From a virus (lineage: Duplodnaviria; Heunggongvirae; Uroviricota; Caudoviricetes): DNA of 64,000 nt. Below the pieces are notes generated by a model. The model ran no database searches. It worked only from the letters and a program-made list of their open reading frames with translations, and was not told the origin of the DNA. Shown here one piece after another: positions 1-27,485 of this stretch. Positions within the stretch are counted from its first letter, which is position 1; every line of letters begins with the position of its first letter. The stretch covers positions 1 to 64,000 of the IMG/VR virus record IMGVR_UViG_2703718833_000007. The stretch is one strand, 5' to 3'. The translations under genes and the position numbers were made by a program.

Positions 1-231
1 TTACGTCTTATCTCTGGCTGGCGTTAATCCGATCTTATCAAAGAACCGCATCACCTCCTGATAGCGATACATGACGCCACGCCCGGTCCCCAACACATCA
101 ACCGGGTCCGGGAATGGAGTCCCGTTCTCCTCCCACTTTTTACGCCATGAATAAAACGTTCCCCTGCTAATGCCGCCCAGCATCCGGCAGATGGCAGGGC
201 GACTAAGAAGAATTGTTGCCGTTTTATCCAT
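1..231 (-). CDS. AlpA/Xis-type small DNA-binding protein (putative excisionase or regulator)
   Basis: 76 aa; HTH-like segment followed by FPDP...GRG...Y motif pattern typical of AlpA-family proteins; position at distal end of leftward arm. Confidence 0.4.
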   Translation of the reverse strand: MDKTATILLSRPAICRMLGGISRGTFYSWRKKWEENGTPFPDPVDVLGTGRGVMYRYQEVMRFFDKIGLTPARDKT

Positions 232-890
232 TATCTTTTCCCCGTGTATTCAACGTGTCCGATACATCCATCAATAATAGCTTGCGCCATATTGCGATAA
301 TCGCACGAAAAATCATTGTCATGGTTAAAGTTAATCTCTTTTGCCGCGTCTTCACCCATAACATTGACAGCAAGTGCAAACGCGATTTCAGCAAGTGCCT
401 TTTCTTTCTGGTTAATGTGAATGCGATAAGAGTATTGTTTCCATGTAATTACCGTTTCCACATCTGATATTAATTTACTGTGAGCGATAGCCCAATTATC
501 ACCGAGATATAAAAACTTGACGACATCAAGAACCGTTCCGCTGGTCATACCTACACAATCAAGCCACACATTAACAGGAGGTTTATCACCTACGGCCCAT
601 TCCTTTTTTTCTGGTTGTGTTTCGCAACCATGCCGCTCATCTTCGATTAATTCATCAATGATCTCACTTTCTTTATTCATGCCGTCACCATCCTTATTAG
701 ATAAATTAGCGTATTTATCAAATTTCCAGCTTGCAGCCATAACCGAATAAGTGCCGCCATCCGCGCGAACACCCAATAAATAGTATGATCCAAAATTATA
801 TTCTGTGCGGCATGTTGTTACCTCAAACGATGGGTAACACTCAGGGTTAGTGCGATGGCTAATCACGCCAATTGCTTTAAGTTTATTCAT
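231..890 (-). CDS. hypothetical protein (219 aa)
   Basis: Long ORF in operon orientation; no recognisable motifs. Confidence 0.4.
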   Translation of the reverse strand: MNKLKAIGVISHRTNPECYPSFEVTTCRTEYNFGSYYLLGVRADGGTYSVMAASWKFDKYANLSNKDGDGMNKESEIIDELIEDERHGCETQPEKKEWAVGDKPPVNVWLDCVGMTSGTVLDVVKFLYLGDNWAIAHSKLISDVETVITWKQYSYRIHINQKEKALAEIAFALAVNVMGEDAAKEINFNHDNDFSCDYRNMAQAIIDGCIGHVEYTGKR

Positions 891-904
891 TTGCTTATCC
901 TCAA

Positions 905-1081
905 TTACGCCACAGTTACATTGTCAACTTTGATAAAATATTCAGGGTGATTTTCTATTTCGTGCTTAAAGTGCGCGTGACACAATCGCCAATCACGCGC
1001 CTGGTTGTGAAAGTAATAAACGTATTCGCCATCAATCTTATACAAAATGCCTGTAGGTTTAGCCATGTAATAACTAACCAT
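905..1081 (-). CDS. small hypothetical protein (58 aa)
   Basis: ORF below track cutoff; start overlaps NinB stop (TAATG). Confidence 0.25.
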   Translation of the reverse strand: MVSYYMAKPTGILYKIDGEYVYYFHNQARDWRLCHAHFKHEIENHPEYFIKVDNVTVA

Positions 1082-1512
1082 TATTGCCCCCAGCGTTTTA
1101 TAAATTCCTCGTTCAACTTAGTGTCACCAGACCATTGAACATTATGTTCAGCGCCGAACGAGTAGATCAGCTCAATTAATTCGCTAAATTCTGCTTTACT
1201 CATCCTGCTTGTAGATGTTCCCAATACAACGAATCCTGATTTATCCAGATTAGGGACAACGCCATATTTCTTAAGCCCGGCAGTAAATACCGCCTTCCAG
1301 TCTTCAGGTGACAGCTTCCTGCCGTACCAGTTAACTTGATCGCTAACGTCTGTCAGCAGCGCCCAAAGCAACGCGTTTTGACTCAGTGAGCGGGTTTTCT
1401 CCTGGATGGTGATTATCAGCGGGCTTTTGCTATCAGGCTGTATTTCCCTTATCTGCCTGATAGCATTTTCTTTCACGGCGTCGTTGACTATCTCAAATCT
1501 AATTTGCCTCAT
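1081..1512 (-). CDS. ninB: NinB-like recombination protein
   Basis: 143 aa; recalled similarity to lambda NinB (Orf-family) and position in nin-like region. Confidence 0.65.
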   Translation of the reverse strand: MRQIRFEIVNDAVKENAIRQIREIQPDSKSPLIITIQEKTRSLSQNALLWALLTDVSDQVNWYGRKLSPEDWKAVFTAGLKKYGVVPNLDKSGFVVLGTSTSRMSKAEFSELIELIYSFGAEHNVQWSGDTKLNEEFIKRWGQ

Positions 1513-1706
1513 AATACACCGTTGCTATTTTTCCATTGCGCCCGCGCATACATGATCGCCCATAAAGAAATGAGCCTTGAACTAGCCATATGGTCGTTTT
1601 TTAGTTTTTTCATATCAACGACGACAGGACGATCAGGATCATCGCCGCGCATGTATTCCGCAATCGTGCTCAGGTCTTCAACTGTTAAATCTAATTCCTT
1701 ATCCAT
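1509..1706 (-). CDS. hypothetical protein (65 aa)
   Basis: ORF with start/stop overlap to neighbours. Confidence 0.35.
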   Translation of the reverse strand: MDKELDLTVEDLSTIAEYMRGDDPDRPVVVDMKKLKNDHMASSRLISLWAIMYARAQWKNSNGVL

Positions 1707-1917
1707 AACGCCACCTCACACAATACGCATTGTGTTTCGTAATTCACCGCGCAGCGCCTGCAAAGCGTAACGAATCGGCACAAAAGCACGGTTAAATTTT
1801 ACGTGCCTGTACTTGCGCATTAGTGGAGGCGTATAACCATCGCGCCGCAAGAATTGCATGGAAATTTAAAGTGAGATTCGTCAATGAATGTTTCAACTGA
1901 ATAAAAAATTACACGTC

Positions 1918-2550
1918 TCATAATTCCAACCCCGTTTCACCGTTAAGTTTTTCGATCTCAAATACTGGTTTATCAGGTAGCAGGCCGTTATTTTTACGGT
2001 ATTCGTTCAGGCGACTATCAAAGTAAAACGCAAGATCATTAGCGTGACCGAATCGCCCAGGTTTAAACAGTGAGTAAAAGTTAACCCCGTGCCTATTTGG
2101 ATCAACGCAAAGCGTTTCATCAATCACCATTAAACGCAGAGTACGAGAGAGATAATTCCACGGGATTCCAGTCTCAGCGCTAATGTCGCGCATACGTTTT
2201 TTAACGCTGTAGTCACTAAATAACGACGCGACACGCTCACGACGTTCAGCATATAACTGTTTAATACGATAACCCAGCAGACGGCGGCGGCGTCCAAAAC
2301 ATGTATATACGCGCTCGACGATACCGTTTTTTATTAAGTGTTTAATTGCCTCAGGAAGTAACCCGTTTTTGTCATATCCAGCCAATAACCCCGTTTTATT
2401 GCGCAACTGGTGCATTGTTGCGATGCCATCAAGTTCAAGGATATTGATAACTTTTGTTTCAAGTTCAGCGCTCATTGTTTTTAGCCTCGTTTTTAAACGC
2501 GATAACAGCCACCAGAAAGCGGTAAACTTTCCGGTAAGCCGTTTGCTCAT
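1918..2550 (-). CDS. hypothetical protein downstream of helicase
   Basis: 210-aa ORF; start uncertain (internal Met possible). Confidence 0.4.
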   Translation of the reverse strand: MSKRLTGKFTAFWWLLSRLKTRLKTMSAELETKVINILELDGIATMHQLRNKTGLLAGYDKNGLLPEAIKHLIKNGIVERVYTCFGRRRRLLGYRIKQLYAERRERVASLFSDYSVKKRMRDISAETGIPWNYLSRTLRLMVIDETLCVDPNRHGVNFYSLFKPGRFGHANDLAFYFDSRLNEYRKNNGLLPDKPVFEIEKLNGETGLEL

Positions 2551-2555
2551 ATTGA

Positions 2556-3971
2556 TTAAAAAGATGCGTTATTCTGATTGTTTCGTTGGTTAAAACGGCT
2601 TGTGCGATGATTCATTGACTGAATACACGCTGCGGCTGCGCGCGCCTGGTCGCATGGCAAGATATTACCGTTGTCATCAAACCGCTGGTAAACAGTTCCA
2701 GACTTACCATGACGGTTTTTTGACACAATGATTTCCATGTATTCGCGGGCAACAGACTGCTCGTCGTAATACCCATCGCGGTAAACCATGATTATTCTGT
2801 CGGCATCTTGCTCAAGGTTGCCGGAATCACGAAGATCAGAATTATTAGGGCGCTTGTTTGGTCGTTCCTCAACTCGTCGTGATAATTGCGCCAGCGCTAA
2901 CACTGGAACGCGCAATTCTTTCGCCATCATCTTCAACGACCATGACAATTGCCCAACAGCGAGATCATGACGTTCTGCCTTAGCCAGCTTCATCAACCCT
3001 ATGTAGTCAATCATTACCATACCCAGGTTGGGATGTTCCTGTTTCATCCGTTCCGTGGTGGCGCGTATTTCCTCAACCGTTAACTGCGACGCGTCAACGA
3101 TCCACACATCAAGATTAGCAAGTGCGCTCATACCCTGGCCGACATGCGCCCAACCCTCATCATCAAGTTTTACAGGATTGCGCAGGCAGTCAGTTGATAA
3201 ATTACCAGCGCCAGCGATAGCGCGTTCAGTCATCTGATCGAGTGACATTTCAAGCGTGAATAACAAAACGCCAACCCGCTGATCCTTGCTGCCAGGGTAA
3301 GGGCGTTCAGCAGCAGCGCGGGCAATTGCCAGCGCCAACGCAGATTTACCAGACCCAGGGCGTCCGGCGAGAAGCACCAGATCAGTAGCGTTAATGCCGC
3401 CTAACATTTCGTCGAGTGGTTCTATCCCTGTTTTGATGTTGTCAGAATTGACACCGCATTCCATGCGCTTACTTAAAACTTCCGTGTATTCCTGGACAGC
3501 ATCGCGCAACAGAACAGGGATAATCTTGTCTTTCGTTACCTTTAATTTTGAATACCGGGAATCAAAATCTTTCATCGTCTCTTTGACGACCTCAAGCGTC
3601 CCCGTCTCCAGTTTGTAGCGCATATCGTCGATGAGTTCCAACATCTGCCGCCGCTGGTGCTCTTCACGTAGTAGCTGTGCGTATCCCTTCAGGTTGGCAG
3701 CAGACGGGCACGATCTCGCTGTTTGCATTAGCGGTACGAAATTTTCATTACCAATCTCATCACCGACCAGCAATGCATCGATGAGATTCCTGTTTCTGGC
3801 TTGTGCCCGGATAATTTCAAAAGCCCGCTTATACAGCGGAATAGTGAACACTTCAGGATCAAGCGTAGCGAGAACATCTTGCGCGTTAGGGGTTAGGCCA
3901 CCTAACAGCAGCCCGCCGATAACTGACGCCTCACGTTCCTGCCGTAGTGAGTTTATTTGCTCAGTTACCAT
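2556..3971 (-). CDS. DnaB-family replicative DNA helicase
   Basis: 471 aa; Walker A GRPGSGKSALAL and DnaB C-terminal RecA-like domain motifs. Confidence 0.85.
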   Translation of the reverse strand: MVTEQINSLRQEREASVIGGLLLGGLTPNAQDVLATLDPEVFTIPLYKRAFEIIRAQARNRNLIDALLVGDEIGNENFVPLMQTARSCPSAANLKGYAQLLREEHQRRQMLELIDDMRYKLETGTLEVVKETMKDFDSRYSKLKVTKDKIIPVLLRDAVQEYTEVLSKRMECGVNSDNIKTGIEPLDEMLGGINATDLVLLAGRPGSGKSALALAIARAAAERPYPGSKDQRVGVLLFTLEMSLDQMTERAIAGAGNLSTDCLRNPVKLDDEGWAHVGQGMSALANLDVWIVDASQLTVEEIRATTERMKQEHPNLGMVMIDYIGLMKLAKAERHDLAVGQLSWSLKMMAKELRVPVLALAQLSRRVEERPNKRPNNSDLRDSGNLEQDADRIIMVYRDGYYDEQSVAREYMEIIVSKNRHGKSGTVYQRFDDNGNILPCDQARAAAACIQSMNHRTSRFNQRNNQNNASF

Positions 3972-4510
3972 TATGTTATTGCCTCCGGTTTACAAAATGT
4001 ATTTTCATCTGGTGAAGAAATACCGTGGTTATGGTGATAGCCATATTTTATTTCAGCTTCACGCCGCGCCCTTACAGCATCATCATATGATTTCCCCCAG
4101 TACACGCTTATAGTTTTTCTTTTGCCATTTTTACTCCATACTACTATTCTTGATCTCCATACTTTTTTTATTTTATCCCAATAAACGCCAACGCAACCGC
4201 TAGTGTTATCTATTGGCTTCTTTGCGTTTCTTGCATTTTCCCACGCATAAACAAGTCTTAAATTTTCAATTCTATCGTCACCTGGCATGTGATTTATATG
4301 ATCAATCATCATTCCATCAGGGATAGGGCCATTAAACATTTCCCAAACAATTCTATGTCTAAGAAAATATTTTTTATTAATAACTATTTGCCAATAACCT
4401 ATGCTCCCCCTACATCCTGCCACATCACCGGGTTTTATTCTTGTTTTGTATCTGTGTTCTTTCCAGTACAAAACACCATTGCTATAAATAAATAATTTAC
4501 TCCATTCCAT
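3971..4510 (-). CDS. HNH endonuclease with AP2 domain (homing-endonuclease-like), copy 1
   Basis: HNH_3-like DHINH...N motif, AP2-like segment, C-terminal KYGYHHNHG; start taken at internal ATG 4510 to avoid 160-nt overlap. Confidence 0.75.
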   Translation of the reverse strand: MEWSKLFIYSNGVLYWKEHRYKTRIKPGDVAGCRGSIGYWQIVINKKYFLRHRIVWEMFNGPIPDGMMIDHINHMPGDDRIENLRLVYAWENARNAKKPIDNTSGCVGVYWDKIKKVWRSRIVVWSKNGKRKTISVYWGKSYDDAVRARREAEIKYGYHHNHGISSPDENTFCKPEAIT

Positions 4511-5624
4511 AATTAGACATCCCAGGTCTATACACAAAGCGCCCAATCTCGCCATATTCAGGACTGTAAATGATAACAGCAGCGCAACGTTGCGAACGCC
4601 ACCCACCACGGGCCGAATAAGCATCTTTAGCAGCCAATGTTCCGTGATGTTCGACAACGCCTAACGATGTTTCAATAACAGATTGATGGTGTAAATGGCC
4701 TACATGCGCGTAAACATATTTAGATTTACCGAAATCATCCCGCCAGTCAGAAACACAGGCAGCAAGTAAATTTTCTGGCTTTTTGATAGTGTGCCCGTGG
4801 TGGTAAGCAAGGAATGTTTTGCCGTACTGTGTGTGGTGGACGATGGCAGGGGACACGTCAACCTTTACGCGCGGTTCATCTTCGTAAAAAGCCGACAGCG
4901 CAGCACGTAGCCAGATCATTCCTGACTGGTCGTGATTGCCTTCAAGTACCTGTATTTCTACCTCCTTGTGATTCAGCAACATTTTCCCAACAGCACGCCT
5001 TACAGATCTGATAACCACATAAACAAGTTTTGCGTAGCGTGAATCGCAATCCAGGACGTGATTGCTTGATGGCGTAACTGGCAACAGCCCGTCAGAATGC
5101 GCCACATCACCGCCTAACAACAATACAGCTTTTTCAGACATCGGCGCAGCGCCTACCGCGTAGTCAAAGAAGTCATTTAACACGCGCTCAGCGATCCCAG
5201 TGTCGTAGCTCTCGCCGCATTCAGCTTTATGGGCAAGTGCCCCGATATGCAAATCAAATACCGGATAAAGGGCAAGACTTTTTTGAAAATCAATTTCAGG
5301 CACTGGCACGGCCTCCGCGCGTGGTATTTCCTCCGTGAATGCGTCGCGGGCAGCTTCCATTAGCCTTTCCATTTCATCACGGTCACGGGCAGTTTTAATC
5401 CAGCGCATGACCGTATTCCCAGCCTTATCGACAAGAACAGATTCACCAGTAACGCCAAAACCCGGCGCGCGGCGTGTTGATAACAAACCGCGTTTCGCCA
5501 GCTTTGCGCCCAGACGCTCGACGTTGCGTTTTGACATGCCGTATTTTTCAGCGATCTGCTTGTACGTTAAACCGTTGTTATATTCAGCGATCAATTGTTC
5601 ATCGCTGATTTTTCTTTGCGACAT
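4497..5624 (-). CDS. HTH domain fused to calcineurin-like metallophosphoesterase
   Basis: N-terminal HTH (LTYKQIAEKYGMSKRNVERL); phosphoesterase motifs DLHIG, GGDVAHSD, GNHD, GHLHH. Confidence 0.55.
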   Translation of the reverse strand: MSQRKISDEQLIAEYNNGLTYKQIAEKYGMSKRNVERLGAKLAKRGLLSTRRAPGFGVTGESVLVDKAGNTVMRWIKTARDRDEMERLMEAARDAFTEEIPRAEAVPVPEIDFQKSLALYPVFDLHIGALAHKAECGESYDTGIAERVLNDFFDYAVGAAPMSEKAVLLLGGDVAHSDGLLPVTPSSNHVLDCDSRYAKLVYVVIRSVRRAVGKMLLNHKEVEIQVLEGNHDQSGMIWLRAALSAFYEDEPRVKVDVSPAIVHHTQYGKTFLAYHHGHTIKKPENLLAACVSDWRDDFGKSKYVYAHVGHLHHQSVIETSLGVVEHHGTLAAKDAYSARGGWRSQRCAAVIIYSPEYGEIGRFVYRPGMSNYGME

Positions 5625-5655
5625 AATGTTACTTCCTCCGGTTTACTATATGTAT

Positions 5656-6426
5656 TTATTCAGAAAAAATAATATTTATCAGTTCATTAAATCTTGATTC
5701 GTAGAAATGAGGTTGAGTCTCTCGCGGATTAGTTGGATTGGTTACGTTTTTCGCGTACAAACGACCGTAAGCTGTGACGTTCCAAAATCTCTTTTCGCCG
5801 CAACGTGCTTTACGATACTTGCGTTCCACAATACCTTTGCGCTCAAGTATTGGATAAACTTCACGCGCATTCATGCCAACGTTATTTTCATCTAGCAATG
5901 CTGTAAGAGATTTTGTCACGCGGCTTGATCCATCCACCGCATCAGCAGGCGCATCAATAGCATAATGCGGAAGGATAGGAGGAATATTATATTCCTTTTC
6001 AATCTTCTGAAGCATTCCTAATTTTCCTGAATTACTCATATTCAGCATTCTACTCGCTGTTTCAGCGAAGGCTAGAACATTGCCGATCTGCGCGTTACCG
6101 TAATTTGGAACAGCATTTTGCCGTACTGCATTTTCAAGTTCCTGCCAGCGGTCAACGAGCCGCGCCGTAAATTCAGGGCAGTTTTGAGCCACGACAATGA
6201 TGCTATCTCGTTTGCCCTGTTCGCCTTCAAAAATATAGACATTAACAAACCTGTTAGGACTAAGTGATTGTTTATTCTCAACTTTCCCCATTGGGGGTAG
6301 TTGAATTATCCCCCTCTGTGCCATGCGTTCTATAGACTGTTTTACTTTATCGTGACGATTGCCTAGTAGTTCCGCAATTTCAAAACTATTCATCTTAACA
6401 GCATCAAAAACCATTAAGTCACTCAT
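5656..6426 (-). CDS. Rha-family phage regulatory protein / antirepressor-like
   Basis: N-terminal region resembles phage regulatory protein Rha; start set at ATG 6426 with GGAG RBS. Confidence 0.55.
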   Translation of the reverse strand: MSDLMVFDAVKMNSFEIAELLGNRHDKVKQSIERMAQRGIIQLPPMGKVENKQSLSPNRFVNVYIFEGEQGKRDSIIVVAQNCPEFTARLVDRWQELENAVRQNAVPNYGNAQIGNVLAFAETASRMLNMSNSGKLGMLQKIEKEYNIPPILPHYAIDAPADAVDGSSRVTKSLTALLDENNVGMNAREVYPILERKGIVERKYRKARCGEKRFWNVTAYGRLYAKNVTNPTNPRETQPHFYESRFNELINIIFSE

Positions 6427-6557
6427 TGTAATTTCTCCGTAAAACGCTCTACAACGCAAAATCCCACCGCGTAACCCATTTGCACAGGTTGCAGTGTCTT
6501 ATTGCGTCAGAGGCGCTTTCAGGTGGCTAATTTTTGATTTACAGACTGGTAGGTAGG

Positions 6558-6792: not shown

Positions 6793-7845
6793 TCAAATAG
6801 CGCCTGCGCGTGTATCGCGTAGCGTTTTTGGTTTAAGCAGGAAATCAAGTGTCGCAGTGAAGCCATCGCCGAAGTAAAAGTCCGAAGCCTTGATCTTGAA
6901 CGCTTCAAAGTAGGCGATAAAGCCGTTAATGCTTTTGTCTTTCAGGTAGTCAGTGAACGCATAGATCTTACGTTCCAAATCCCGATCCAGTTCAGCAGGT
7001 GGCAACAGGCCATCAAACGTGATGTTAAACTCATTAACCACATCGGCAGCGTTTACAGTAGATGACAGCTTGCGCCATTGTTCAGCGTCAGCCAGATACC
7101 CATCGAATTTAGTTACCCGGCAAATGTTGATAGGCTTAGGTGTTCCGCCACGGCTACGCCATTGCGTTAAAGCCCACTCAATCACTAATGTGATCTCATC
7201 CTCCGTATACGCTTTGCGTGTTTTTGTTTCTGTCAGTAGTTCGATGAATGGCTTAGCATCACGACATTTGCATCCTGCCTTGTCGTTGTAGAATGCCAGG
7301 CAACGCAATGCAGCATCGCTTATCTGATAGTCACTATCCTGATTGACTTCTTTTCTTTTTATATTTTTCTTTTCTTCTTCTGTTTCTTTTTCTTCTTCTA
7401 ATTCTATTTCTAATTCATGACCCTTTCCTGACCCGGTCATGACCATATCATGACCTTTTGTTGTTGGATTGATTAACTTCTCTAATTTTAATTGCTCCTT
7501 AGCTGTGTTTATGGCTGCCCTGTATGCGCTTTTAGAAGTCATTGATTGGTCCAGCCTTTTCAATAACTTTAAACAAGTTATGTGGCCTTGAGAGCATTCG
7601 AATAAACCAATTTCGATAAAGTATTTCATCATTTCTTCTATGCGTTTTTCAGTCGATCCGACGTTTCGCGCGATGATTCTGGCGTCATGTCGTAGGTCAA
7701 ATGTAAGGTTGTGCTGATCTACGTCATAAGTTATCAGTTCTAGGCAATACCAATAAAGCCCGTAGCCTTCCAGGCCATAATCTAATAAAACGTTTTGAAG
7801 TTTTTCATCGCGGTTCGCATCGCTATCATGCTTAAACCACTTCAT
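6793..7845 (-). CDS. phage replication initiation / replisome organizer protein
   Basis: 350 aa; N-terminal replisome-organizer-like domain, acidic linker, conserved phage C-terminal domain; first large gene of rightward-type operon. Confidence 0.6.
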   Translation of the reverse strand: MKWFKHDSDANRDEKLQNVLLDYGLEGYGLYWYCLELITYDVDQHNLTFDLRHDARIIARNVGSTEKRIEEMMKYFIEIGLFECSQGHITCLKLLKRLDQSMTSKSAYRAAINTAKEQLKLEKLINPTTKGHDMVMTGSGKGHELEIELEEEKETEEEKKNIKRKEVNQDSDYQISDAALRCLAFYNDKAGCKCRDAKPFIELLTETKTRKAYTEDEITLVIEWALTQWRSRGGTPKPINICRVTKFDGYLADAEQWRKLSSTVNAADVVNEFNITFDGLLPPAELDRDLERKIYAFTDYLKDKSINGFIAYFEAFKIKASDFYFGDGFTATLDFLLKPKTLRDTRAGAI

Positions 7846-8106: not shown

Positions 8107-8412
8107 TGTATTTTCTCCTATGGTTAAAATGAACGCGCTGGCGGGTATCCCATTAGCATTAGATAGCAGTGACTGACCGCTGAACAGATCCCGCCGTTGC
8201 GTGATATTTGTTTTTCGCTTCGCAGCGACACCGGATTTTTAAAGAGCTTTTAAGGTATGTGCCTTTTGTGCTTTCCATTATCTTTTTTCTTGCATCCTTG
8301 CAAGTATGGCCTTACCTTGTCTGCAAGTTTACAGAATGGCGTTAACAGGTCAAGGATTGAAAATTACATTTTGTGACTTGCATCAAATTTTTTTAGGTTA
8401 TAGGGTAGCGAC
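8107..8412. promoter_or_regulatory. divergent immunity-region promoter/operator region
   Basis: Intergenic between divergent repressor and cro-like genes; CTTGCA/TGCAAG repeats at 8289-8304, 8316-8327, 8377-8382. Confidence 0.5.
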
Positions 8413-9060
8413 ATGAAAACAAAATGGTATGACTTAGCGAAACAACTCATGCGGGCGCAGGGTATGAGTCAGGATTCATTGGCAGATCTCATGGGGATCA
8501 CAAAAGGCGGCTTGTCACACTGGCTTAACGGTCGCCGCGAGCCGAATCTTGAAGACATTGCGCGGATCATGCGGGCGCTTGGGCGTCGGCAATTCACTGT
8601 TACACATGATGGAATGGTCATTGATGATTCTGTTTCTAACACGTTGCCGGGAGCGCCACCGCGTGATTTAGGCAGTTACCCGGTTGTTGACTGGAAGGAT
8701 GTAGTAAACAATATGGAAGATGCAAGGCGATCAACATTACCACACGTTACGACTAGCGTTATTTGTTCAGATGATAGTTACTGGCTGGTAGCTAAAGGCG
8801 AATCAATGAACGCGCCGCAAGGATTGAGTATACCAGCGGGGACGATGATACTTGTCGATCCGCACGCGCCAGCTATTGATGGCAAACTGGTTATAGCCCA
8901 ATTGGAGGAGGGGCAGATACCGACGTTTAAACAGTTGATTATTGATGGAGGCAGAAAACTTTTGCGTTCACTGAATCCGTTGTATCCGCCAATCCCTATG
9001 AATCCAGAATCTAAAATCATAGGCGTGGTAGTGGATGCGAAGATCGTAAACCTGCCATAA
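8413..9060 (+). CDS. cI-like repressor (HTH-XRE plus S24 LexA-type peptidase domain)
   Basis: 215 aa; N-terminal HTH, C-terminal S24 peptidase with GESM serine motif and downstream lysine. Confidence 0.85.
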   Translation: MKTKWYDLAKQLMRAQGMSQDSLADLMGITKGGLSHWLNGRREPNLEDIARIMRALGRRQFTVTHDGMVIDDSVSNTLPGAPPRDLGSYPVVDWKDVVNNMEDARRSTLPHVTTSVICSDDSYWLVAKGESMNAPQGLSIPAGTMILVDPHAPAIDGKLVIAQLEEGQIPTFKQLIIDGGRKLLRSLNPLYPPIPMNPESKIIGVVVDAKIVNLP

Positions 9061-9066
9061 ACATTA

Positions 9067-9090
9067 GCCGCCTGGTGGCGGCTTTTCTTT
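9067..9090 (+). terminator. rho-independent terminator after repressor gene
   Basis: GCCGCC-TGGT-GGCGGC hairpin followed by TTTTCTTT. Confidence 0.5.
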
Positions 9091-9183: not shown

Positions 9184-9212
9184 TTGACTCGGTGTTTTAC
9201 GTGGCGTATATT
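9184..9212 (+). promoter_or_regulatory. PL-like sigma70 promoter
   Basis: TTGACT, 17-bp spacer, TATATT. Confidence 0.5.
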
Positions 9213-9253: not shown

Positions 9254-9291
9254 TGCTCTTTAACAATCTGGTCAGCCGCTGGAAGTGCGGC
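9254..9291 (+). promoter_or_regulatory. nut-like site (boxA plus boxB hairpin)
   Basis: TGCTCTTTAACAA matches the boxA consensus; 8 nt downstream a GCCGC-TGGAAGT-GCGGC hairpin. Confidence 0.45.
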
Positions 9292-9346: not shown

Positions 9347-9637
9347 ATGACCGTTACAATCATGTATGGCAAATGTGATAGCAAAATAAACGCCAGGGAA
9401 CGCAGAAGAATAAAAAGAGAAAACGAAAGAAAATCATCACCTGCAATTAATAAAACAGACAATGTGGATAAAGCTATTCGCTTTGCAAACGAGGAAAGAT
9501 GCAAACCAAATAGCATTAAAGAACGTCGCAAAGGAGCAGTAAAATGGTATACGGAAAATGAAAGCGGCAACTACTACCACGCAACGCAACCACGCCAGTT
9601 AGGGGAAAAACCCCTTGATAAAGTCCGTTACCATTAA
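9347..9637 (+). CDS. N-like transcription antiterminator (arginine-rich motif protein)
   Basis: 96 aa, basic; N-proximal NARERRRIKRENERK resembles lambdoid N arginine-rich motif; first gene after promoter and nut-like site; AAGGAG RBS. Confidence 0.5.
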   Translation: MTVTIMYGKCDSKINARERRRIKRENERKSSPAINKTDNVDKAIRFANEERCKPNSIKERRKGAVKWYTENESGNYYHATQPRQLGEKPLDKVRYH

Positions 9638-9786: not shown

Positions 9787-10440
9787 GTGAAAACAGAGTT
9801 ACACAAAAAACTGTGGACGATTCAGCAAACGCTGAACGCGCCTAAAAATCAGCGTAATAATTTCGGCGGGTATAATTACAGATCAGCGGAGGATATTTTA
9901 GAAGCGGTTAAACCACTGCTTCAAAATATCACGCTGACTGTTAGTGATGAAATTGTCCTGATCGGCAATCGCTATTACGTGAAAGCAACGGCGACGCTAA
10001 GCGACGGTGAAGATGAAATAGCGGTAACGGCTTACGCCAGGGAGGAAGAAAGCAAGAAGGGAATGGACGCAAGCCAGCTAACAGGAGCAACATCAAGTTA
10101 CGCGCGGAAATATGCTTTGAACGGATTGTTCTGCATTGACGACGCCCGCGATCCTGATACTGACGCATACGCGAAGCAGACAGGCCAGCAGCCACGCCAG
10201 CAGAAAAATACGCCAAAACAGCAACCTAATCAGAAACCACAGCAGCAGAAAGCGCCGCCAAATCCTGATGAGGTGTTAGCACGTTTTTGTGATGCGGCAG
10301 CGAAAGCGCAGGACGAAAAAACACTAAGGGAAATATTCGGTAAATGTTGGAAGCTGTTACCTGAAAATTCAGAGCAACGGCAGAAAGCGCAAGATTGTTA
10401 CCAGATCCGTAAGGATGAACTGAATGGAACAATTAACTAA
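9787..10440 (+). CDS. Erf-family single-strand annealing protein
   Basis: 217 aa; Erf-like N-terminal domain, Q/P-rich C-terminus; GTG start with AAGGAG RBS. Confidence 0.7.
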   Translation: MKTELHKKLWTIQQTLNAPKNQRNNFGGYNYRSAEDILEAVKPLLQNITLTVSDEIVLIGNRYYVKATATLSDGEDEIAVTAYAREEESKKGMDASQLTGATSSYARKYALNGLFCIDDARDPDTDAYAKQTGQQPRQQKNTPKQQPNQKPQQQKAPPNPDEVLARFCDAAAKAQDEKTLREIFGKCWKLLPENSEQRQKAQDCYQIRKDELNGTIN

Positions 10441-11020
10441 AAAATGCACAAAATGCGGCAGAATCCTGCCGCTTAACTCTTTCCTGAAGCACAAATCATG
10501 CAAATACGGCGTAGCTGGTACATGTAAGGATTGCGCAAAGGTATACAGGGAAGCCAATAAAGACAAAATAGCCGAGCAAAATAGAAGATGGAGGGAAAAA
10601 CACAAGGAAGAAATTCGAGAAAAGGATAGAAAATACTACGAAGAACACAAAGAAGAATGTAATAAGCGAGCGAAAGAGTATCGTAAAAATAACAAAGAAA
10701 AAATATTGGAAAAGAAAAATAATTGGGTAAGAAGAAACGAGGAAAGGTTAAAGGAGTATAGGAGACAATACCACGAAGATTATAAAGAAAGAAATAAGGC
10801 GGAACTAAAGGCAAGAACAAAACTAAGCAACGCCATTAGAGATGGTAAAGTATTAAGGCCAAATAAATGTGATAGGTGCGGGAAAAAGTGCACTCCTGAT
10901 GGGCATCATTGGAATTATGCATATCCGCTAAATGTTGTTTGGTTATGCCGTTCTTGTCATAAGATAGTGCATTTTAAGTTTGGGTGTATACACGAAAACA
11001 TTAACGGGGAGATCGGTTAA
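10424..11020 (+). CDS. zinc-ribbon / Lys-Glu-rich / HNH-like nuclease-motif protein
   Basis: N-terminal CxxC...CxxC, highly charged KE-rich middle, C-terminal CxxC...HH...CxxCH HNH-like motif; A-rich composition. Confidence 0.45.
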   Translation: MEQLTKKCTKCGRILPLNSFLKHKSCKYGVAGTCKDCAKVYREANKDKIAEQNRRWREKHKEEIREKDRKYYEEHKEECNKRAKEYRKNNKEKILEKKNNWVRRNEERLKEYRRQYHEDYKERNKAELKARTKLSNAIRDGKVLRPNKCDRCGKKCTPDGHHWNYAYPLNVVWLCRSCHKIVHFKFGCIHENINGEIG

Positions 11021-11424
11021 TGAGCTTAAATTTAATCACACTTGGCGGTAATATTGGGAATGATATGAAAGTTCGCTACACGCAAAACGGGAAGGCGATT
11101 GGTAGTTTTTCGTTAGCTGTAACGAATGGATACGGTGATAATAAACGGACAATGTGGATCACTTGTCTGGTATTTGGCGAGCGTGCGGAAAAATTAGCGC
11201 CACATATCCGCAAGGGCGGGAAAATAGTGGTAAGCGGTCGCCTGGACGTTCGGCAATATGACTGGAACGACGGCACGAAGGGGACTGCGGTAGAAGTGGC
11301 GGTTAATGAGTTCGAATTTTGCAGCAGAAACGATCAGCAACCACAGCAACAGCAGCAACAGCAGAATAATGGCGGTGGATATGAAGAGCCGCCAATGGAT
11401 TTTGATGATTCAATTCCTTTTTAA
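11020..11424 (+). CDS. ssb: single-stranded DNA-binding protein
   Basis: 134 aa; OB-fold SSB pattern, Q-rich linker, acidic C-terminal tail ending DDSIPF. Confidence 0.85.
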   Translation: MSLNLITLGGNIGNDMKVRYTQNGKAIGSFSLAVTNGYGDNKRTMWITCLVFGERAEKLAPHIRKGGKIVVSGRLDVRQYDWNDGTKGTAVEVAVNEFEFCSRNDQQPQQQQQQQNNGGGYEEPPMDFDDSIPF

Positions 11425-11439: not shown

Positions 11440-11718
11440 ATGGTCGATTATTTAAAACCGCCACCGCCACCGCGAACAAAAGAGCAAGTATTAAAAGAAG
11501 CCCGTGATCAAATCGATCATGGGCTTTTTTTATGTGGCACGGCAGCGGAACGGATGGCAAAAAGATTCAGTGACCTGTACGCAAAACAAATATGGTTCGA
11601 CAACTGGCAGGCAAGTTTTTATCCACTGCAAAGAAAACCGGATATGCACTGGCCTGAATATGTCGATCCGCGTATGCGCAAATATCGCGGGCGTATGGGC
11701 CAGGTCATTAACGATTAA
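11440..11718 (+). CDS. hypothetical protein (92 aa)
   Basis: Operon-context ORF. Confidence 0.4.
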   Translation: MVDYLKPPPPPRTKEQVLKEARDQIDHGLFLCGTAAERMAKRFSDLYAKQIWFDNWQASFYPLQRKPDMHWPEYVDPRMRKYRGRMGQVIND

Positions 11719-16862: not shown

Positions 16863-17121
16863 AACAACCACGCCACCGCCGCGCGGCTTTGCCCGTGCTG
16901 TATTCCTGGCTAACGACCGGGCCATCAATCGTGCTACGCTCAACCGCGTTTTACCGGACTGAAATTTACAAAATGGCGTCATTGCGTGATGTGGATCACA
17001 TAATGGCGCTTTTCACCTTGTTCTGACGTATCCGTTTTGTATACTTCAAACAAGCAAAATGCTCTTTAAAAATCCGGCAGCGCTGAAATGCGTAGAAATC
17101 ACCTGAAAAGGAGAGAGCATT

Positions 17122-18322: not shown

Positions 18323-18501
18323 AAAACGAAGTTAAAGATCTGCAAATAGATATTCAGTGCGATGAGCATGATTTAGCTACAGTCAGAAAAATCCAGGCTT
18401 TTCATATGCGAGAATTGCTTGCATTGAAAGAGCTTGAGAGGAAGTTAGTCCAGTCTATTTCTGATCGTAAACGCCTTATTGCTCGTTACGGGGGCAAATA
18501 A
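18319..18501 (+). CDS. hypothetical protein (60 aa)
   Basis: Coupled ORF. Confidence 0.35.
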   Translation: MKNEVKDLQIDIQCDEHDLATVRKIQAFHMRELLALKELERKLVQSISDRKRLIARYGGK

Positions 18502-19223
18502 TGAATCTGGAGTCAATTCTTAAATTCCACTTCCCAAAATCACCGCATTTGTCAGATGAAAGTCGTGGCACGTCACCGGACGCGCTTAATACTACGGATG
18601 CGCTAACTGCCGCTGGTATGGCGCAATCGCGCGTAGAGCTTGGTTATAGCGCTTTTTTAGGGAAGATGGAACTATCACAAGCCGAAAAGCACAGGGCCGT
18701 AGTTTTGCTTACAGAGCGTTTAAGAGCTATGGCAAAAGATTATAAATACGTTATGGAACTGGACGAGGTGCGACGAAATGATCTCATTATTCTTGTTGCC
18801 GTTTTCGCATTTCGGGATTATTGCCAGAGTGCCGCGACGGAAAAAACTTGTATGGAGTGCGGCGGATATAAATTTACGTTTGACGAGTATGGGGAAAAAC
18901 ACCTTTGCAAAAAATGCAAGGGGCATGGGAAAGTTCTTAATCATTGCAAACAATGCAAGGGCCGTGGAGAAGTGCCTGATAAAGCAGCCAGCGAAGCGGC
19001 GGAAATGCCCGTGTTCAAAACGTGCCAGCATTGCGGCGGGCGCGGGTACTCGCGTTTCCCTGTAGATCTTGTCCGGCAGGCGGTTAATCAGCTTGTCTTT
19101 CCTGTAAGCCGATCAACATGGTGGAAGAAATACCGTGCTTTCTATGAAGACGCCATTGCTGAATTGTTCAAAGAAGAGGCGCGGGCTGATAACGAAATTA
19201 AACGAGTGACGCGGGGTGAATGA
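18501..19223 (+). CDS. DnaJ-type zinc-finger protein in late-antiterminator (Q) position
   Basis: 240 aa; four CxxCxGxG repeats; located after nin-like genes where lambdoid Q lies. Confidence 0.4.
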   Translation: MNLESILKFHFPKSPHLSDESRGTSPDALNTTDALTAAGMAQSRVELGYSAFLGKMELSQAEKHRAVVLLTERLRAMAKDYKYVMELDEVRRNDLIILVAVFAFRDYCQSAATEKTCMECGGYKFTFDEYGEKHLCKKCKGHGKVLNHCKQCKGRGEVPDKAASEAAEMPVFKTCQHCGGRGYSRFPVDLVRQAVNQLVFPVSRSTWWKKYRAFYEDAIAELFKEEARADNEIKRVTRGE

Positions 19224-21713: not shown

Positions 21714-21715
21714 TT

Positions 21716-21931: not shown

Positions 21932-21977
21932 TGTCGTTTACATCAATAAATGTGATCTACCACGCAAAGTTTACGAA

Positions 21978-22343: not shown

Positions 22344-22345
22344 TT

Positions 22346-22600: not shown

Positions 22601-22603
22601 CAA

Positions 22604-23527: not shown

Positions 23528-23700
23528 GCGAGATAGAAGACGGTATCTATTTTCACAAGGTATTTAACATCGTCTATTTACTTAGAGGTGAATCGGTGAT
23601 GATAAAACCTGATGATGATCCGCATTGGGAATCAAGCGACATGGATCGGTGGCATATGCAAACATTGCTAGATAATGGCCTGATATACAGAAAGCAGTAA
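23524..23700 (+). CDS. hypothetical protein (58 aa)
   Basis: ATGA overlap; below track cutoff. Confidence 0.3.
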   Translation: MSEIEDGIYFHKVFNIVYLLRGESVMIKPDDDPHWESSDMDRWHMQTLLDNGLIYRKQ

Positions 23701-23765
23701 AGCCGTATTTGTGGAGCGAAAACAAACAGATTAAAATATTCTCTAACAATGCGAAACTGTAACTA

Positions 23766-23787
23766 CCCGGCCCCGCGCCGGGTTTTT
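23766..23787 (+). terminator. rho-independent terminator immediately upstream of lysis cassette (tR-prime-like)
   Basis: CCCGGC-CCCGC-GCCGGG hairpin followed by TTTTT, about 20 nt before holin RBS. Confidence 0.5.
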
Positions 23788-23807: not shown

Positions 23808-24008
23808 ATGTTCGAAAGAATACGGGAGGCGTGTGCGTATGTGGCTGGTGCAGTAACCGCTTTTTTCGGCGCGATAACCATCAATGACGTTGCCGTCTTT
23901 GTGGGTATCTTATCAACCATTGGCACATTTGCCGTTAACTATTACTTCAAATCACAGGAGAACAAGAGGGCGCAAGAGGAACACGACGCACGAATGGGGA
24001 ATAAGTAA
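23808..24008 (+). CDS. pinholin (phage 21 S-like class II holin)
   Basis: 66 aa, two TM helices, charged C-terminus; precedes SAR endolysin; GGAGG RBS. Confidence 0.65.
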   Translation: MFERIREACAYVAGAVTAFFGAITINDVAVFVGILSTIGTFAVNYYFKSQENKRAQEEHDARMGNK

Positions 24009-24009
24009 C

Positions 24010-24501
24010 ATGATTAGCCAATCGCTGAAAAACCGACTAACTAAGGCGGCGGCTGGTGGAACGTTAGCCATTGCATCTGTTTTGCTTGTATGGGTTGAGG
24101 GTACGGCTTACGAGCCTTATTACGATACCGGAGGCGTGCTAACTGTATGCAATGGCATAACCGGCCATGATGTTGTCCCTGGTAAGAGATATACACCGGA
24201 TGAATGCGAGAGACTTTTGCAAAAGCATTTAACCGTTCACAAAAAGGCGGTTGATCGTTATGTAAAAGTTGACATGAATGATTATCAACGCGCAGCGCTA
24301 ATTAGCTTTTCATACAATATCGGGGTTGACGCTTTCAAAAAATCAACCTTGTTAAAAAAAATAAACAAAGGCGACTTTAAGGGAGCGTGTAAGGAGATGG
24401 ATCGCTGGGTGTATGACAATGGGAGATATATACAAGGCTTAAAGAATCGTCGCGATATTGAACGTGCTATATGTGAATGGGGCGTAACCAATGGAAAGTG
24501 A
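24010..24501 (+). CDS. SAR endolysin (GH24 phage lysozyme with N-terminal signal-anchor-release helix)
   Basis: 163 aa from ATG 24010; weakly hydrophobic Gly/Ala-rich N-terminal helix; lysozyme motifs recalled as similar to phage 21 R. Confidence 0.8.
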   Translation: MISQSLKNRLTKAAAGGTLAIASVLLVWVEGTAYEPYYDTGGVLTVCNGITGHDVVPGKRYTPDECERLLQKHLTVHKKAVDRYVKVDMNDYQRAALISFSYNIGVDAFKKSTLLKKINKGDFKGACKEMDRWVYDNGRYIQGLKNRRDIERAICEWGVTNGK

Positions 24502-25012
24502 TGATGAACTAAAACGAAAGCTACACTACGATCCAGCGACAGGTATTTTCACCTATAAGATTAGTCCTCACGGGAGAATCAAGGCCGGAAGCGTAGCCGG
24601 GTGTAAGCATAAAAGCGGATACATACACATAGGAAGATATAAAGCGCATCGCCTTGCGTGGTTTTTCCATTATGGAGTGTGGCCCGAAAAGGACATTGAC
24701 CATATTAATGGAATAAAAACCGACAACAGGATAGTAAACCTGCGAGAAACAGATGATGCGCATAACTGCAGAAACAAGAAACATATTGCCACTCACACAT
24801 TGTCTGCATTCAGGGGTGTTAGCTACCACAAAACAGAGAGAAGCAAGCCTAAATGGCGAGTAAGAATTACCGACAATGAAGGTAAGCGTATATCTATTGG
24901 TTTATTTGACTCACTAGACGAAGCGATCGCCGCTCGCATTTTGGCGGAAAACTTTTTCTATGGTGAATATGCACCTTCGATGGGTTGCGAGGGTGAAACA
25001 TGGACAAGGTGA
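24491..25012 (+). CDS. HNH endonuclease with AP2 domain, copy 3 (divergent), inserted between endolysin and Rz
   Basis: IDHINGIKTDNRIVNL HNH_3 motif and AP2-like RGV...W segment. Confidence 0.7.
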   Translation: MESDDELKRKLHYDPATGIFTYKISPHGRIKAGSVAGCKHKSGYIHIGRYKAHRLAWFFHYGVWPEKDIDHINGIKTDNRIVNLRETDDAHNCRNKKHIATHTLSAFRGVSYHKTERSKPKWRVRITDNEGKRISIGLFDSLDEAIAARILAENFFYGEYAPSMGCEGETWTR

Positions 25013-25470
25013 AGACGTTAATCATCGCCGCTGTTGTTTGCATCATTGCCGGGCTTGCTGCCGTAACGTGCTATTACCAGGGTGAAACGGCAAGGTTGCA
25101 GGAAGAAGTCACGGTGACGAAAGGCGCGCTAAAAACAGCAAGTAACACTATTCAGCAGATGAAGGAGCGAAACGCAGAACTGTCAAAACTTGATAAGAGG
25201 TATCACGATGAGATTAAAGCTATCAGATCTGACATTGCCGATCTGCGCACTGGCATTGATAACGGCACTATCAGGCTGCGCGTCAACGCAATACCAGTGC
25301 GAGTGTCCGACTCCACCGGAACCGCCAGCCGCATTGATGGAGCCTCCTGTAGACTCACTCCCGACGCTGAATCGGCTTATCTATCCCTCAGAGAACAACT
25401 AAAAGAGAAAGATGCGAAGATAACCGCGCTTCAGGGCTACATCAAAACGCAGTGCTTACGCAAAGAATAA
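25000..25470 (+). CDS. Rz-like i-spanin
   Basis: 156 aa; N-terminal TM helix, coiled-coil periplasmic domain; contains embedded Rz1 frame. Confidence 0.7.
   Translation: MDKVKTLIIAAVVCIIAGLAAVTCYYQGETARLQEEVTVTKGALKTASNTIQQMKERNAELSKLDKRYHDEIKAIRSDIADLRTGIDNGTIRLRVNAIPVRVSDSTGTASRIDGASCRLTPDAESAYLSLREQLKEKDAKITALQGYIKTQCLRKE
25208..25402 (+). CDS. Rz1-like o-spanin (lipoprotein embedded in Rz, alternate frame)
   Basis: 64 aa; signal peptide with LSGC lipobox, proline-rich mature region. Confidence 0.7.
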   Translation: MRLKLSDLTLPICALALITALSGCASTQYQCECPTPPEPPAALMEPPVDSLPTLNRLIYPSENN

Positions 25471-26505: not shown

Positions 26506-26604
26506 ATGGATATATTCGAATTACTGGCGATTATGTGCGGAATGATGTTAGGCACTGTCGCCATAATCATCATCATCGGCCTTGTTATGGGTAGCATCAA
26601 ATGA
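26506..26604 (+). CDS. micro-ORF 3: 32-aa single-TM peptide
   Basis: MDIFELLAIMCGMMLGTVAIIIIIGLVMGSIK; AGGTGA RBS. Confidence 0.35.
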   Translation: MDIFELLAIMCGMMLGTVAIIIIIGLVMGSIK

Positions 26605-26681
26605 ACGCATACGAAATGCTATTGCTGGTGGCTGTTATTACAGTTATCGCCGTTGATTTTTATCGAGGGTTGAAAAGATGA
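26601..26681 (+). CDS. micro-ORF 4: 26-aa single-TM peptide
   Basis: MNAYEMLLLVAVITVIAVDFYRGLKR; ATGA overlap with ORF 3. Confidence 0.35.
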   Translation: MNAYEMLLLVAVITVIAVDFYRGLKR

Positions 26682-26749
26682 GAGAAGCAGACTTCTTTTG
26701 CATGATTATGGTGATCGTCATCGTTGCCGTGCTTTTAAGCGTTAACTGA
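26678..26749 (+). CDS. micro-ORF 5: 23-aa single-TM peptide
   Basis: MREADFFCMIMVIVIVAVLLSVN; ATGA overlap with ORF 4. Confidence 0.35.
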   Translation: MREADFFCMIMVIVIVAVLLSVN

Positions 26750-26767
26750 ATCGCAGGGGGGTTAAAA

Positions 26768-26836
26768 ATGAAATGGCTTGATTTCTTTTTCCTGATCGTT
26801 GCGATTGTTCTTACCATGACCGCGCTGACTCAATAG
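26768..26836 (+). CDS. micro-ORF 6: 22-aa single-TM peptide
   Basis: MKWLDFFFLIVAIVLTMTALTQ; GGGGGG RBS. Confidence 0.35.
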   Translation: MKWLDFFFLIVAIVLTMTALTQ

Positions 26837-26905
26837 GTTATGGCTTGGACGCGCATTTTATGCGCTTCCTAAACTTAGTAAGCCAAAGAAAGAGAATGGC
26901 AAGCA

Positions 26906-26989
26906 ATGAAATATCTATCAAGTTGGTTGGGTGTATCAATATACTTCGCAACATTAATCGAGTGTTTATATATAGTGAATAAATTTTAA
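26906..26989 (+). CDS. micro-ORF 7: 27-aa hydrophobic peptide (weaker RBS)
   Basis: MKYLSSWLGVSIYFATLIECLYIVNKF; ends 10 nt before terminase small subunit start. Confidence 0.25.
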   Translation: MKYLSSWLGVSIYFATLIECLYIVNKF

Positions 26990-26999
26990 GAGGTGAATT

Positions 27000-27485
27000 A
27001 TGGCCCGCACTAAAAAGGCAAAGGCTGACGATAAAAAGCCAGCAGCTAAAAAGGTGGGCCGTCCGCATGGTTATACCGAAGAAAAGGCATTAGAGATCTG
27101 TGAGCTGGTGGCGGACGGTCAGAGCGTTAACAAAATTTCAAAAATGCCAGGTATGCCAACACGTTCGACAATCCTTAAGTGGTTCCGTGATGTGCCTGAA
27201 TTTTCGGACATGTACGTGAGAGCGAAGGAGATCGGTTTTGAGGTATTAGCTGATGAGATCATCGATATAGCTGACGCAGCTGAGAATATTGATAAGGATG
27301 AATTGCGCCGCCATCAATTAATGATTGAAACCCGTAAATGGCTATTGGCAAAACTGCAACCGCGTAAATATGGTGAACGCGTCACGCAGGAAATCGTTGG
27401 TAACAGGGAGGAATCACCCGTCCAGGTTGAAGTCACGAAAGAAGAGATCGCCCGCATCGTCCAGGAAGTAGAAGACGAGGTGTGA
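27000..27485 (+). CDS. terminase small subunit
   Basis: 161 aa; basic N-terminus, HTH-like segment, directly upstream of large terminase; GAGGTGA RBS. Confidence 0.65.
   Translation: MARTKKAKADDKKPAAKKVGRPHGYTEEKALEICELVADGQSVNKISKMPGMPTRSTILKWFRDVPEFSDMYVRAKEIGFEVLADEIIDIADAAENIDKDELRRHQLMIETRKWLLAKLQPRKYGERVTQEIVGNREESPVQVEVTKEEIARIVQEVEDEV

Follow-up and report, generated by a model that had tools for sequence, protein, structure and literature searches.

The closest described systems are phage mEp021 and its relatives, of which 48 genomes with a conserved architecture have been described as 'Nus-dependent non-lambdoid' mEpimmI phages (Negrete-Mendez et al. 2025, PMC11893012). The genomes were retrieved at no less than 60% coverage and at least 70% nucleotide identity to mEp021, and the mEp isolates were reported to depend on Nus factors of the host, to be excluded by Rep021 and not to recombine with lambda (PMC11893012). 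In the present work, a 64,000-nucleotide (nt) stretch of the IMG/VR virus record IMGVR_UViG_2703718833_000007 (positions 1 to 64,000; hereafter the window) was analyzed as a follow-up of an earlier note on the atypical order of its gene modules. It was concluded with high confidence that the window covered the greater part of one 54.7-kb temperate siphophage genome, which belongs to the mEpimmI group and is the G180 prophage residing in dgcM/ydaM, and that the early cassette of this phage was inverted. The layout, the group, the genome map, the repressor, the nut sites and the att sites are already published, and the G180 prophage belongs to that data set: it is listed in Table 1 of PMC11893012 as 'G180, Bos taurus, mastitis, France, NZ_LONT01000016.1', one of 38 prophages, and is assigned in Table 2 of that paper to the integrase group Ib.

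The source of the window was found through an exact-sequence match of a 219-amino-acid (aa) protein encoded in the left arm (231-890), which pointed to a single contig, LONT01000016.1 of E. coli G180 (GCA_001575935.1), a 258-kb contig of a draft assembly. Positions 1-10890 of the window were identical to this contig, which added 9.8 kb leftward. An integrase and attL had been predicted to the left of the window in the earlier note, and both were present in the extended sequence (Table). Further leftward past int, dgcM/ydaM, smrA, abgR, abgA, abgB, abgT, ogt and fnr were found, hence the host was E. coli. The prophage ends were located at ~-1339 and ~53370 by mapping the mEp021 ends onto the extended sequence, and the distance between the two att cores was 54.7 kb. 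When the outer flanks were joined at the att core, an intact DgcM N-terminus (MITHNFNTLDLLTSPVWIVSPFEE...) was obtained. The core lay inside codons ~15-18 of dgcM, that is, the insertion was at the 5' end of dgcM/ydaM. Exact repeats of at least 12 nt shared by the left flank and the right part of the window were chance 13-mers only, the true core being 9 bp long. It was also observed that CCGTTCA(A/G) motifs were repeated at -1330..-1165, in the stretch from attL to the start codon of int; these may be arm-type integrase binding sites.

The mEp021 genome (MH706966.1; 54,655 bp) was aligned over 79% of its length at a mean identity of 90.2%, collinearly and in one orientation, which is within the retrieval rule of the group. 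The first 25 kb of the window aligned with six mEp phages at 89-90.5% identity, in each case collinearly and at a single place. The protein identities to mEp021 were 98.6% for the repressor Rep, 97.9% for Gp17, 97% for Int, 98.7% for DnaB and 94% for Q. The gene order and orientation were the same end to end in both phages, as were the integrase type, the dgcM/ydaM site and the three nut sites. Accordingly annotated in mEp021 are int on the plus strand, then a helix-turn-helix (HTH) protein, NinB, a helicase, an HNH protein, a replication protein and another HTH protein on the minus strand, and then the repressor, gp17, Erf, SSB, an anti-RecBCD protein, Dam, NinF, NinG, a resolvase, Q, a holin and the structural genes on the plus strand. 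The two genomes differed only in alleles and indels. The G180 prophage possessed a DUF4373-type initiator N-domain with GGTCATGA iterons, whereas in mEp021 a winged HTH (wHTH)-type domain is accompanied by different iterons of ~20 bp; the Cro-position alleles were 34% identical. Further, an HNH gene occupied the place of the mEp021 cytosine methyltransferase gp33, an extra endonuclease gene was situated between erf and ssb, the endolysin was different and was accompanied by an HNH insertion, and ~215 bp upstream of nutR1 were deleted.

The sequence characters that define the group were all found in the G180 prophage, namely the sequence similarity, the Rep021-type repressor, the Gp17 arginines, the three nut sites and the integrase with insertion into dgcM. 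The Rep021-type repressor (Cro/CI HTH and S24 domains) is ~96% conserved in the group, its immunity was shown by experiment for mEp021, and Rep021 has no Ala-Gly cleavage site, the mEpimmI lysogens being not UV-inducible (PMC11893012). The repressors of seven mEpimmI-group phages had 96-100% identity to that of the window. Integration in ydaM, abgT or mppA depends on the integrase type, and both the integration of mEp021 at ydaM and its Gp17 antitermination with nutL, nutR1 and nutR2 were established by others (PMC11893012). The left arm was present in 38 and the immunity junction in 35 of the 5426 complete E. coli genomes, always as a single copy and on the chromosome.

In the group, nutL precedes the repressor gene, nutR1 precedes gp17 and nutR2 is in the interval ahead of ninF, and the arginines of Gp17 at positions 17, 19, 20 and 24 are conserved (PMC11893012). 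The boxA motif GCTCTTTAA occurred in exactly three copies in the 64 kb, with ~0.6 expected by chance. The copies at 8239-8247 (minus strand), 9255-9263 (plus strand) and 17061-17069 (plus strand) matched the published positions of nutL, nutR1 and nutR2, and each was followed 8-9 nt further on by a 4-5-bp hairpin. The Gp17 orthologue read N15 A R17 E R19 R20 R21 I K R24, all four positions being occupied by arginine, with R21 in addition. A 2023 Arch Virol abstract is said to have placed nutR2 more than 7.9 kb downstream of nutR1, which would be consistent with the 7.8 kb measured in the window. It was also noticed that ~215 bp between the early rightward promoter and nutR1 (around 9225-9266), including the small open reading frame (ORF) mEp021_16, were missing in G180 and present in mEp021, WCHEC025970 and MagusPhagus. 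This deletion appears to have joined two boxA-like elements, leaving the hybrid boxA GCTCTTTAACAA.

All sizeable ORFs within 1-8106 of the window were on the minus strand, and from 8413 to ~40 kb a nearly gap-free chain of plus-strand ORFs was observed. The GC skew changed from negative to positive at ~8 kb, so that the two-arm layout described in the earlier note was borne out by both the ORF strands and the skew, and nearly all of its gene calls were upheld by the Pfam and PHROG profile searches. The contrast that it had drawn with lambda was likewise confirmed by the genome records, in which lambda O/P and P22 18/12 share the strand of the nin, Q and lysis genes. The replication arm had been described as running toward the presumed integrase. 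However, int is encoded by the plus strand and is convergent with the replication operon, the last gene of which it overlaps by 61 nt, and therefore is not a member of that operon; at most, transcription of the replication arm can supply the small HTH gene in the Xis position. The product of this HTH gene had been called AlpA-like. Its position and its general HTH character agreed with the call (Pfam HTH_23, 29.8 bits, cut-off 24.6), but no AlpA or Xis profile reached its threshold: HTH_17 (E=0.057) and Xis_Gifsy_1 (17.3 bits, cut-off 60) were weak matches, and Phage_AlpA was not matched in the Pfam and NCBIfam profile searches. The excisionase role of this 76-aa protein is thus putative. Finally, the arrangement was called a mosaic in the earlier note, but it is not a one-off, as the same architecture is kept across the published phage group, the G180 prophage included. 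The influence on the coupling between excision and replication that the note ascribed to it is hypothetical.

A second prophage was encountered ~4 kb to the right of attR, where the left end of a Rac-like prophage (57621-63007, minus strand) followed zntB, dbpA and ttcA and encoded a 411-aa tyrosine integrase, RecT and an 866-aa exodeoxyribonuclease VIII (RecE). The possibility that the minus-strand genes at 1-8106 are a separate satellite or remnant prophage abutting a phage that starts at the repressor was considered and judged extremely improbable. The divergent arms and the sign change of the GC skew at ~8 kb would suit such a junction, and the Rac prophage indicates that the region does collect prophages. 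However, both arms were collinear with the isolated phage mEp021, with five more mEp phages and with MagusPhagus, one att pair enclosed the whole 54.7 kb, and no initiator or helicase of its own was found in the plus arm by the Pfam and PHROG profile searches. Moreover, one and the same boxA is shared by nutL on the minus arm and by nutR1 and nutR2, the sites for the plus-arm Gp17. The one-element view of the earlier note was upheld by the collinearity of both arms and by the single att pair. Just as little credence was given to a recent rearrangement confined to this genome, or to an error of assembly, by which the early region of a lambdoid phage would have been flipped once. Although the contig comes from a draft assembly, and the 33-57% protein identity of the modules to their P22 counterparts makes a lambdoid ancestry of the parts plausible, the same order and orientation are shared by six independently sequenced mEp phages, MagusPhagus, 33-38 complete chromosomes of E. 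coli and every one of the 48 genomes of PMC11893012. The nucleotide identity among the carriers was 84-93%, therefore the layout is old and group-wide.

The identities and directions of the genes, the att sites, the collinear match to mEp021, the nut sites, t1 and the pre-holin terminator were observed directly. Taking the window as most of one mEpimmI genome with an inverted early cassette, we further proposed a scheme of its regulation. The regulatory parts are of the lambda/P22 kind: a CI repressor flanked by predicted early promoters that diverge from each other, the N/nut and Q systems and, within the initiator gene, a probable ori. The promoter at 9184-9212, which lies downstream of the repressor gene and t1 like lambda PL, would drive gp17, erf, ssb, abc2 and ~5 kb of accessory genes. 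Gp17 would act at nutR1 and again at nutR2, so that transcription would reach ninF-ninG-rusA-Q, and Q would bring about read-through of the pre-holin terminator into the lysis and structural genes. The leftward promoter at ~8326-8353, with nutL in the 210-nt leader, would serve the wHTH gene, the initiator, the Rha-like, phosphoesterase-like, DnaB and NinB genes and the Xis-position HTH gene, and this leftward transcription would pass through ori. Since int is convergent with the last leftward gene and overlaps it, it would need its own promoter next to attL, and leftward read-through would be antisense to int.

The hexamers of the 9184-9212 promoter were identical in four aligned genomes. The strong terminator before the holin gene occupies the position of mEp021 t5, which is listed among the experimentally demonstrated terminators (PMC11893012). 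In a search for operators, the palindrome CTTGCANNNNTGCAAG was found in one perfect copy and, at up to three mismatches, was no commoner than in shuffled sequence. An inverted repeat TTGACTCG...CGAGTCAA around the 9184 promoter was dropped as an operator, being weaker in mEp021.

Several points weighed against the proposed reading. The three presumed boxB hairpins were no more stable than those of shuffled sequence, and a PRM-like −35 hexamer was not conserved in mEp021. The 16-bp palindrome near the leftward promoter was without a counterpart at the 9184 promoter, the operators thus being candidates only. The use of the promoters, the read-through from nutR1 to Q and the antisense transcription of int, with its effect on int, are all predictions made from the sequence. 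Also, a single inversion of a lambda-like ancestor was rejected as a complete account of the layout: int is flipped as well, and the Xis-position gene is still beside int, therefore the change was not one clean inversion.

The replication genes were further considered together with the gene that follows the leftward promoter. A probable ori was recognized inside the initiator gene by four 8-bp iterons (TCATGACC/TCCTGACC) with 11-bp spacing (7415-7455) and an adjoining ~65-bp T-rich tract (7345-7412), and in mEp515 iterons were present at the same gene positions. The first gene of the leftward operon was treated as a Cro-position gene in the earlier note. A Cro/CI-like character was not borne out for its 85-aa product, which resembled the winged helix at the N-terminus of O-type initiators and varied independently of the repressor. 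The top profile matches of the protein were the N-terminal ~70-90 residues of such initiators (phrog_4617, E=6e-23). Outside the mEp group, most of its tblastn matches (38-41% identity) were at the start of O/replication-protein genes of Stx, Salmonella and other phages. The protein was only 34-35% identical to its mEp013 and mEp021 counterparts, although the repressors of these phages were 100% and 98.6% identical to that of the window. Nucleotide homology to mEp021 stopped at 8112, at the ribosome-binding site of the wHTH gene, and the segment 7314-8112, comprising this gene, the initiator N-domain and the iterons, had none, whereas the adjoining immunity region was 94% identical.

The DUF4373 initiator was 86% identical to that of G180 in mEp515 and 89% in MagusPhagus, with wHTH proteins of the same class (67% and 64%, respectively). 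The mEp021 wHTH class (34-35% identity to G180) was also found in mEp554 and mEp010, and in all three phages the initiator was matched in the C-terminal half only; mEp013 and mEp044 were also placed in the mEp021 class, an assignment made from the wHTH gene alone. The wHTH class thus varied with the initiator N-domain and the iterons and not with the repressor, therefore the gene travels with the replication specificity. As judged from these sequences, there are two replication-specificity (initiator/iteron) classes inside one immunity group. A Cro/CI-type cro co-varying with cI, a trait that defines lambdoid phages, was not found in the window, and the 210-nt leftward leader contained no credible small Cro-like ORF.

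It was tentatively proposed, at less than an even chance, that the Cro-position gene is not a Cro and is instead a free-standing copy of an O-type winged helix that travels with the ori/initiator module, and that nutR2 is an adaptation letting the N operon reach Q, this operon being ~9 kb long because the early cassette is inverted. If so, the repressor-based switch would work without a Cro/CI-type partner. We considered it rather unlikely that the 85-aa protein is a true functional Cro, which binds the operators of the repressor within a fully lambda-like switch. The gene is small, is the first after the leftward early promoter and encodes a DNA-binding winged helix, and sequence divergence by itself does not preclude a conserved DNA specificity. 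However, the protein matched the O-type initiator N-domains and not the Cro/CI HTH families, it diverged from the mEp013 and mEp021 copies despite the near identity of the repressors, the homology to mEp021 was lost exactly at the ribosome-binding site of the gene, and the wHTH type co-varied with the initiator N-domain and the iteron type when G180, mEp515 and MagusPhagus were set against the mEp021-type phages. Neither the point on the Cro-position gene nor nutR2 as an adaptation is taken up in the accessible text of PMC11893012. What possibly goes beyond that text is small, namely that the Cro-position gene follows the ori type and not the immunity, and that there are two initiator/iteron classes.

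Table. Features of the G180 prophage in window coordinates (negative numbers lie to the left of the window; most identities to known phage proteins are given in the text)
Feature	Position	Strand	Remarks
attL core TCCAGACAG (9 bp)	-1339..-1331		mapped from mEp021 ends
Tyrosine integrase	-1153..61 (3' end at 1..61)	+	404 aa; Arm-DNA-bind_3 and Phage_integrase
Xis/AlpA-position HTH protein, 76 aa	1..231	-	last gene of leftward operon; 3' end overlaps int by 61 nt
NinB/Orf recombination mediator	1081..1512	-	E=1e-46
210-aa protein	1918..2550	-	weak PHROG matches to MarR-type and Ren-like families
DnaB-type replicative helicase	2556..3971	-	DnaB_C E=2e-75
HNH_3/AP2 homing-endonuclease-like gene	3971..4657	-	source-contig call: 179 aa, 3971-4510
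Metallophosphoesterase/SbcD-like protein, 375 aa	4497..5624	-	N-terminal HTH; PHROG 704 'DNA repair exonuclease' E=9e-142
Rha/BRO/Ant-like regulator	5656..6459	-	source-contig call: 256 aa, 5656-6426
O-like replication initiator	6793..7845	-	DUF4373/Lin1244_N N-domain; O-like initiators matched in PHROG
Probable ori inside initiator gene	7345..7458	.	iterons and T-rich tract
Cro-position winged-helix protein, 85 aa	7849..8106	-	like N-terminal ~70 aa of O-type initiators
nutL	8215..8247	-	boxA GCTCTTTAAAAA and boxB hairpin UCGCU-GCGA-AGCGA
Perfect 16-bp palindrome CTTGCATCCTTGCAAG	8289..8304	.	candidate operator
TTGCA-containing half-sites related to CTTGCATCCTTGCAAG	8317-8328, 8376-8388	.	candidate operators
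Candidate leftward early promoter, TTGACC-16-TAAACT	8326..8353	-	precedes 210-nt leader containing nutL
CI-type repressor	8413..9060	+	HTH_3 and Peptidase_S24; 98.6% identical to Rep021
Intrinsic terminator t1	9066..9083	+	after repressor gene; conserved in four genomes
Predicted rightward early promoter, TTGACT-17-TATATT	9184..9212	+	best sigma-70 match in first 20 kb
nutR1	9255..9291	+	boxA GCTCTTTAACAA and boxB hairpin GCCGC-UGGAAGU-GCGGC
N-like antiterminator, Gp17 orthologue	9347..9637	+	PHROG 271
Erf single-strand annealing protein	9787..10440	+	above Pfam cut-off
SSB	11020..11424	+	above Pfam cut-off
Abc2-like anti-RecBCD protein	11440..11718	+	profile match
Dam N6-adenine methyltransferase	14894..15433	+	above Pfam cut-off
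nutR2	17061..17093	+	boxA GCTCTTTAAAAA and short hairpin; 7.8 kb past nutR1, just upstream of ninF
NinF	17122-17298	+	assigned via collinearity with mEp021_34
NinG	ORF 17184-17918	+	above Pfam cut-off
RusA	17915-18322	+	above Pfam cut-off
Q-type late antiterminator	18501..19223	+	Pfam Antiterm E=8e-29
Promoter-like site	23649-23676	+	~90 nt upstream of 23765-23783 terminator
Strong intrinsic terminator	23765..23783	+	25 nt before holin gene; position of mEp021 t5
Holin	23808-24008	+	lysis cassette (23808..25470)
Endolysin	within ORF 23884-24501	+	lysis cassette
Inserted HNH endonuclease	24491-25012	+	lysis cassette
Rz-type spanin	25000-25470	+	lysis cassette
TerS (Sf6-type) and TerL	27000..28966	+	morphogenesis genes begin here
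attR core TCCAGACAG (9 bp)	53365..53373		mapped from mEp021 ends

Among the remaining minus-arm products, the 375-aa protein had been called a phosphoesterase. This call was backed by the PHROG 704 match and by the metallophosphoesterase motifs DLH, GGDVAH, GNHD and GHLHH, which were read directly in the protein. The Rha-like protein was borderline for Phage_pRha (29.8 bits, cut-off 29.9), its PHROG matches being anti-repressor and regulator families. The PDB sequence searches with the 375-aa and 85-aa proteins gave no meaningful match, a YopM match being rejected as a repeat artefact, and most of the left-arm proteins were left without a name by the NCBIfam profiles. Four endonuclease-type genes were observed: besides the HNH_3/AP2 insertions of the minus arm and of the lysis cassette, a third of that type was located at 16335-16862 (plus strand), and another endonuclease gene (10424-11020, plus strand; phrog_2340) was situated between erf and ssb. 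Three of the four were indels relative to mEp021, corresponding to the replaced gp33 cytosine methyltransferase, the endolysin/spanin insertion and the erf/ssb insertion.

On the plus arm, ~4.5 kb between Q and the terminator and holin (19220-23700) contained ~20 small plus-strand ORFs of unknown function, and the likely late promoter (23649-23676) lay at a long distance from the Q gene, a difference from lambda and P22. The GC skew became negative again at 40000-44000, among the tail genes; at the matching position mEp021 carries minus-strand accessory gene clusters, including a putative antirepressor.

The proteins of the window were compared with P22 (NC_002371.2) and lambda (NC_001416.1) by tblastn, and the gene orders were read from the records of these phages. 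P22 and the window had in common that a CI-type repressor separates two divergent early operons, that antitermination is of the N/nut and Q types and that an ori is situated within the initiator gene. However, the genes for the O-like C-terminus (P22 gene 18, 33% identity), DnaB (gene 12, 57%) and NinB (ninB, 54%) run against the late genes in the window, whereas their P22 counterparts run with them. The reverse applies to Rep (c2, 41%) and Erf (erf, 52%), whose genes run with the late genes in the window and against them in P22. NinG (50%), Q (gene 23, 34%) and the spanin (Rz, 36%) are encoded in the late-gene direction by both phages. In P22, 18-12-ninB are oriented like ninG-23-lysis, and c2-24-erf-xis-int run opposite; in the window the block reaching from erf and the repressor gene to the initiator gene and ninB is inverted. 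Furthermore, int is the last gene of the neighbouring operon in P22 and convergent with it in the window, the nut sites number two and three, respectively, and the small ORFs between Q and the holin gene set the window apart. No Cro/CI-type cro and no c1 or c3 homologues were found in the window in this comparison.

The homologues of lambda proteins found in the window were cI (31%), NinB (54%), NinG (52%), Q (34%) and Rz (31%), with the same strand picture as in P22. The regulatory logic was shared with lambda, as were the iterons and an AT-rich tract inside the initiator gene, and the order from the repressor to N was that of lambda PRM-cI-terminator-PL-nutL-N, but facing the late genes. With respect to Q and the late genes, the early cassette was oriented oppositely in the two phages. 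They also differed in that Erf, SSB and Abc2 were present in the window instead of Exo, Bet and Gam, a DnaB-type helicase instead of P, and a headful-type (Sf6-like) TerS unlike that of lambda. The lambdoid gene order (int-xis-recombination-N-cI / cro-replication-nin-Q-lysis-morphogenesis) was not that of the window, and proteins of both the N and the Q antitermination types, which are a further lambdoid trait, were present in it; the mEpimmI group is termed non-lambdoid (PMC11893012).

Judged by gene order, the block of recombination genes, N and repressor / replication genes and ninB has been turned around with respect to the ninF/G, Q, lysis and morphogenesis genes, with notional breakpoints that would lie in the nin region between ninB and ninF and beside the Xis-position gene. 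As the group and the G180 prophage are already published, the layout adds no new biology. It is nevertheless a useful natural case for comparison with lambda and P22, as it shows that lambda-type parts (CI repressor, N/nut, Q, ori in the initiator gene) can work with the early cassette reversed relative to the late genes; here the N operon, not the cro/replication operon, would lead to Q, and an excision-side gene would end the replication operon. In a Vibrio phage that carries a related initiator of the DUF4373 type, the order was canonical, with the single-strand annealing protein and SSB genes leftward and the Rha, initiator, loader and RusA genes rightward; therefore the inverted order belongs to the mEpimmI group and not to the module.

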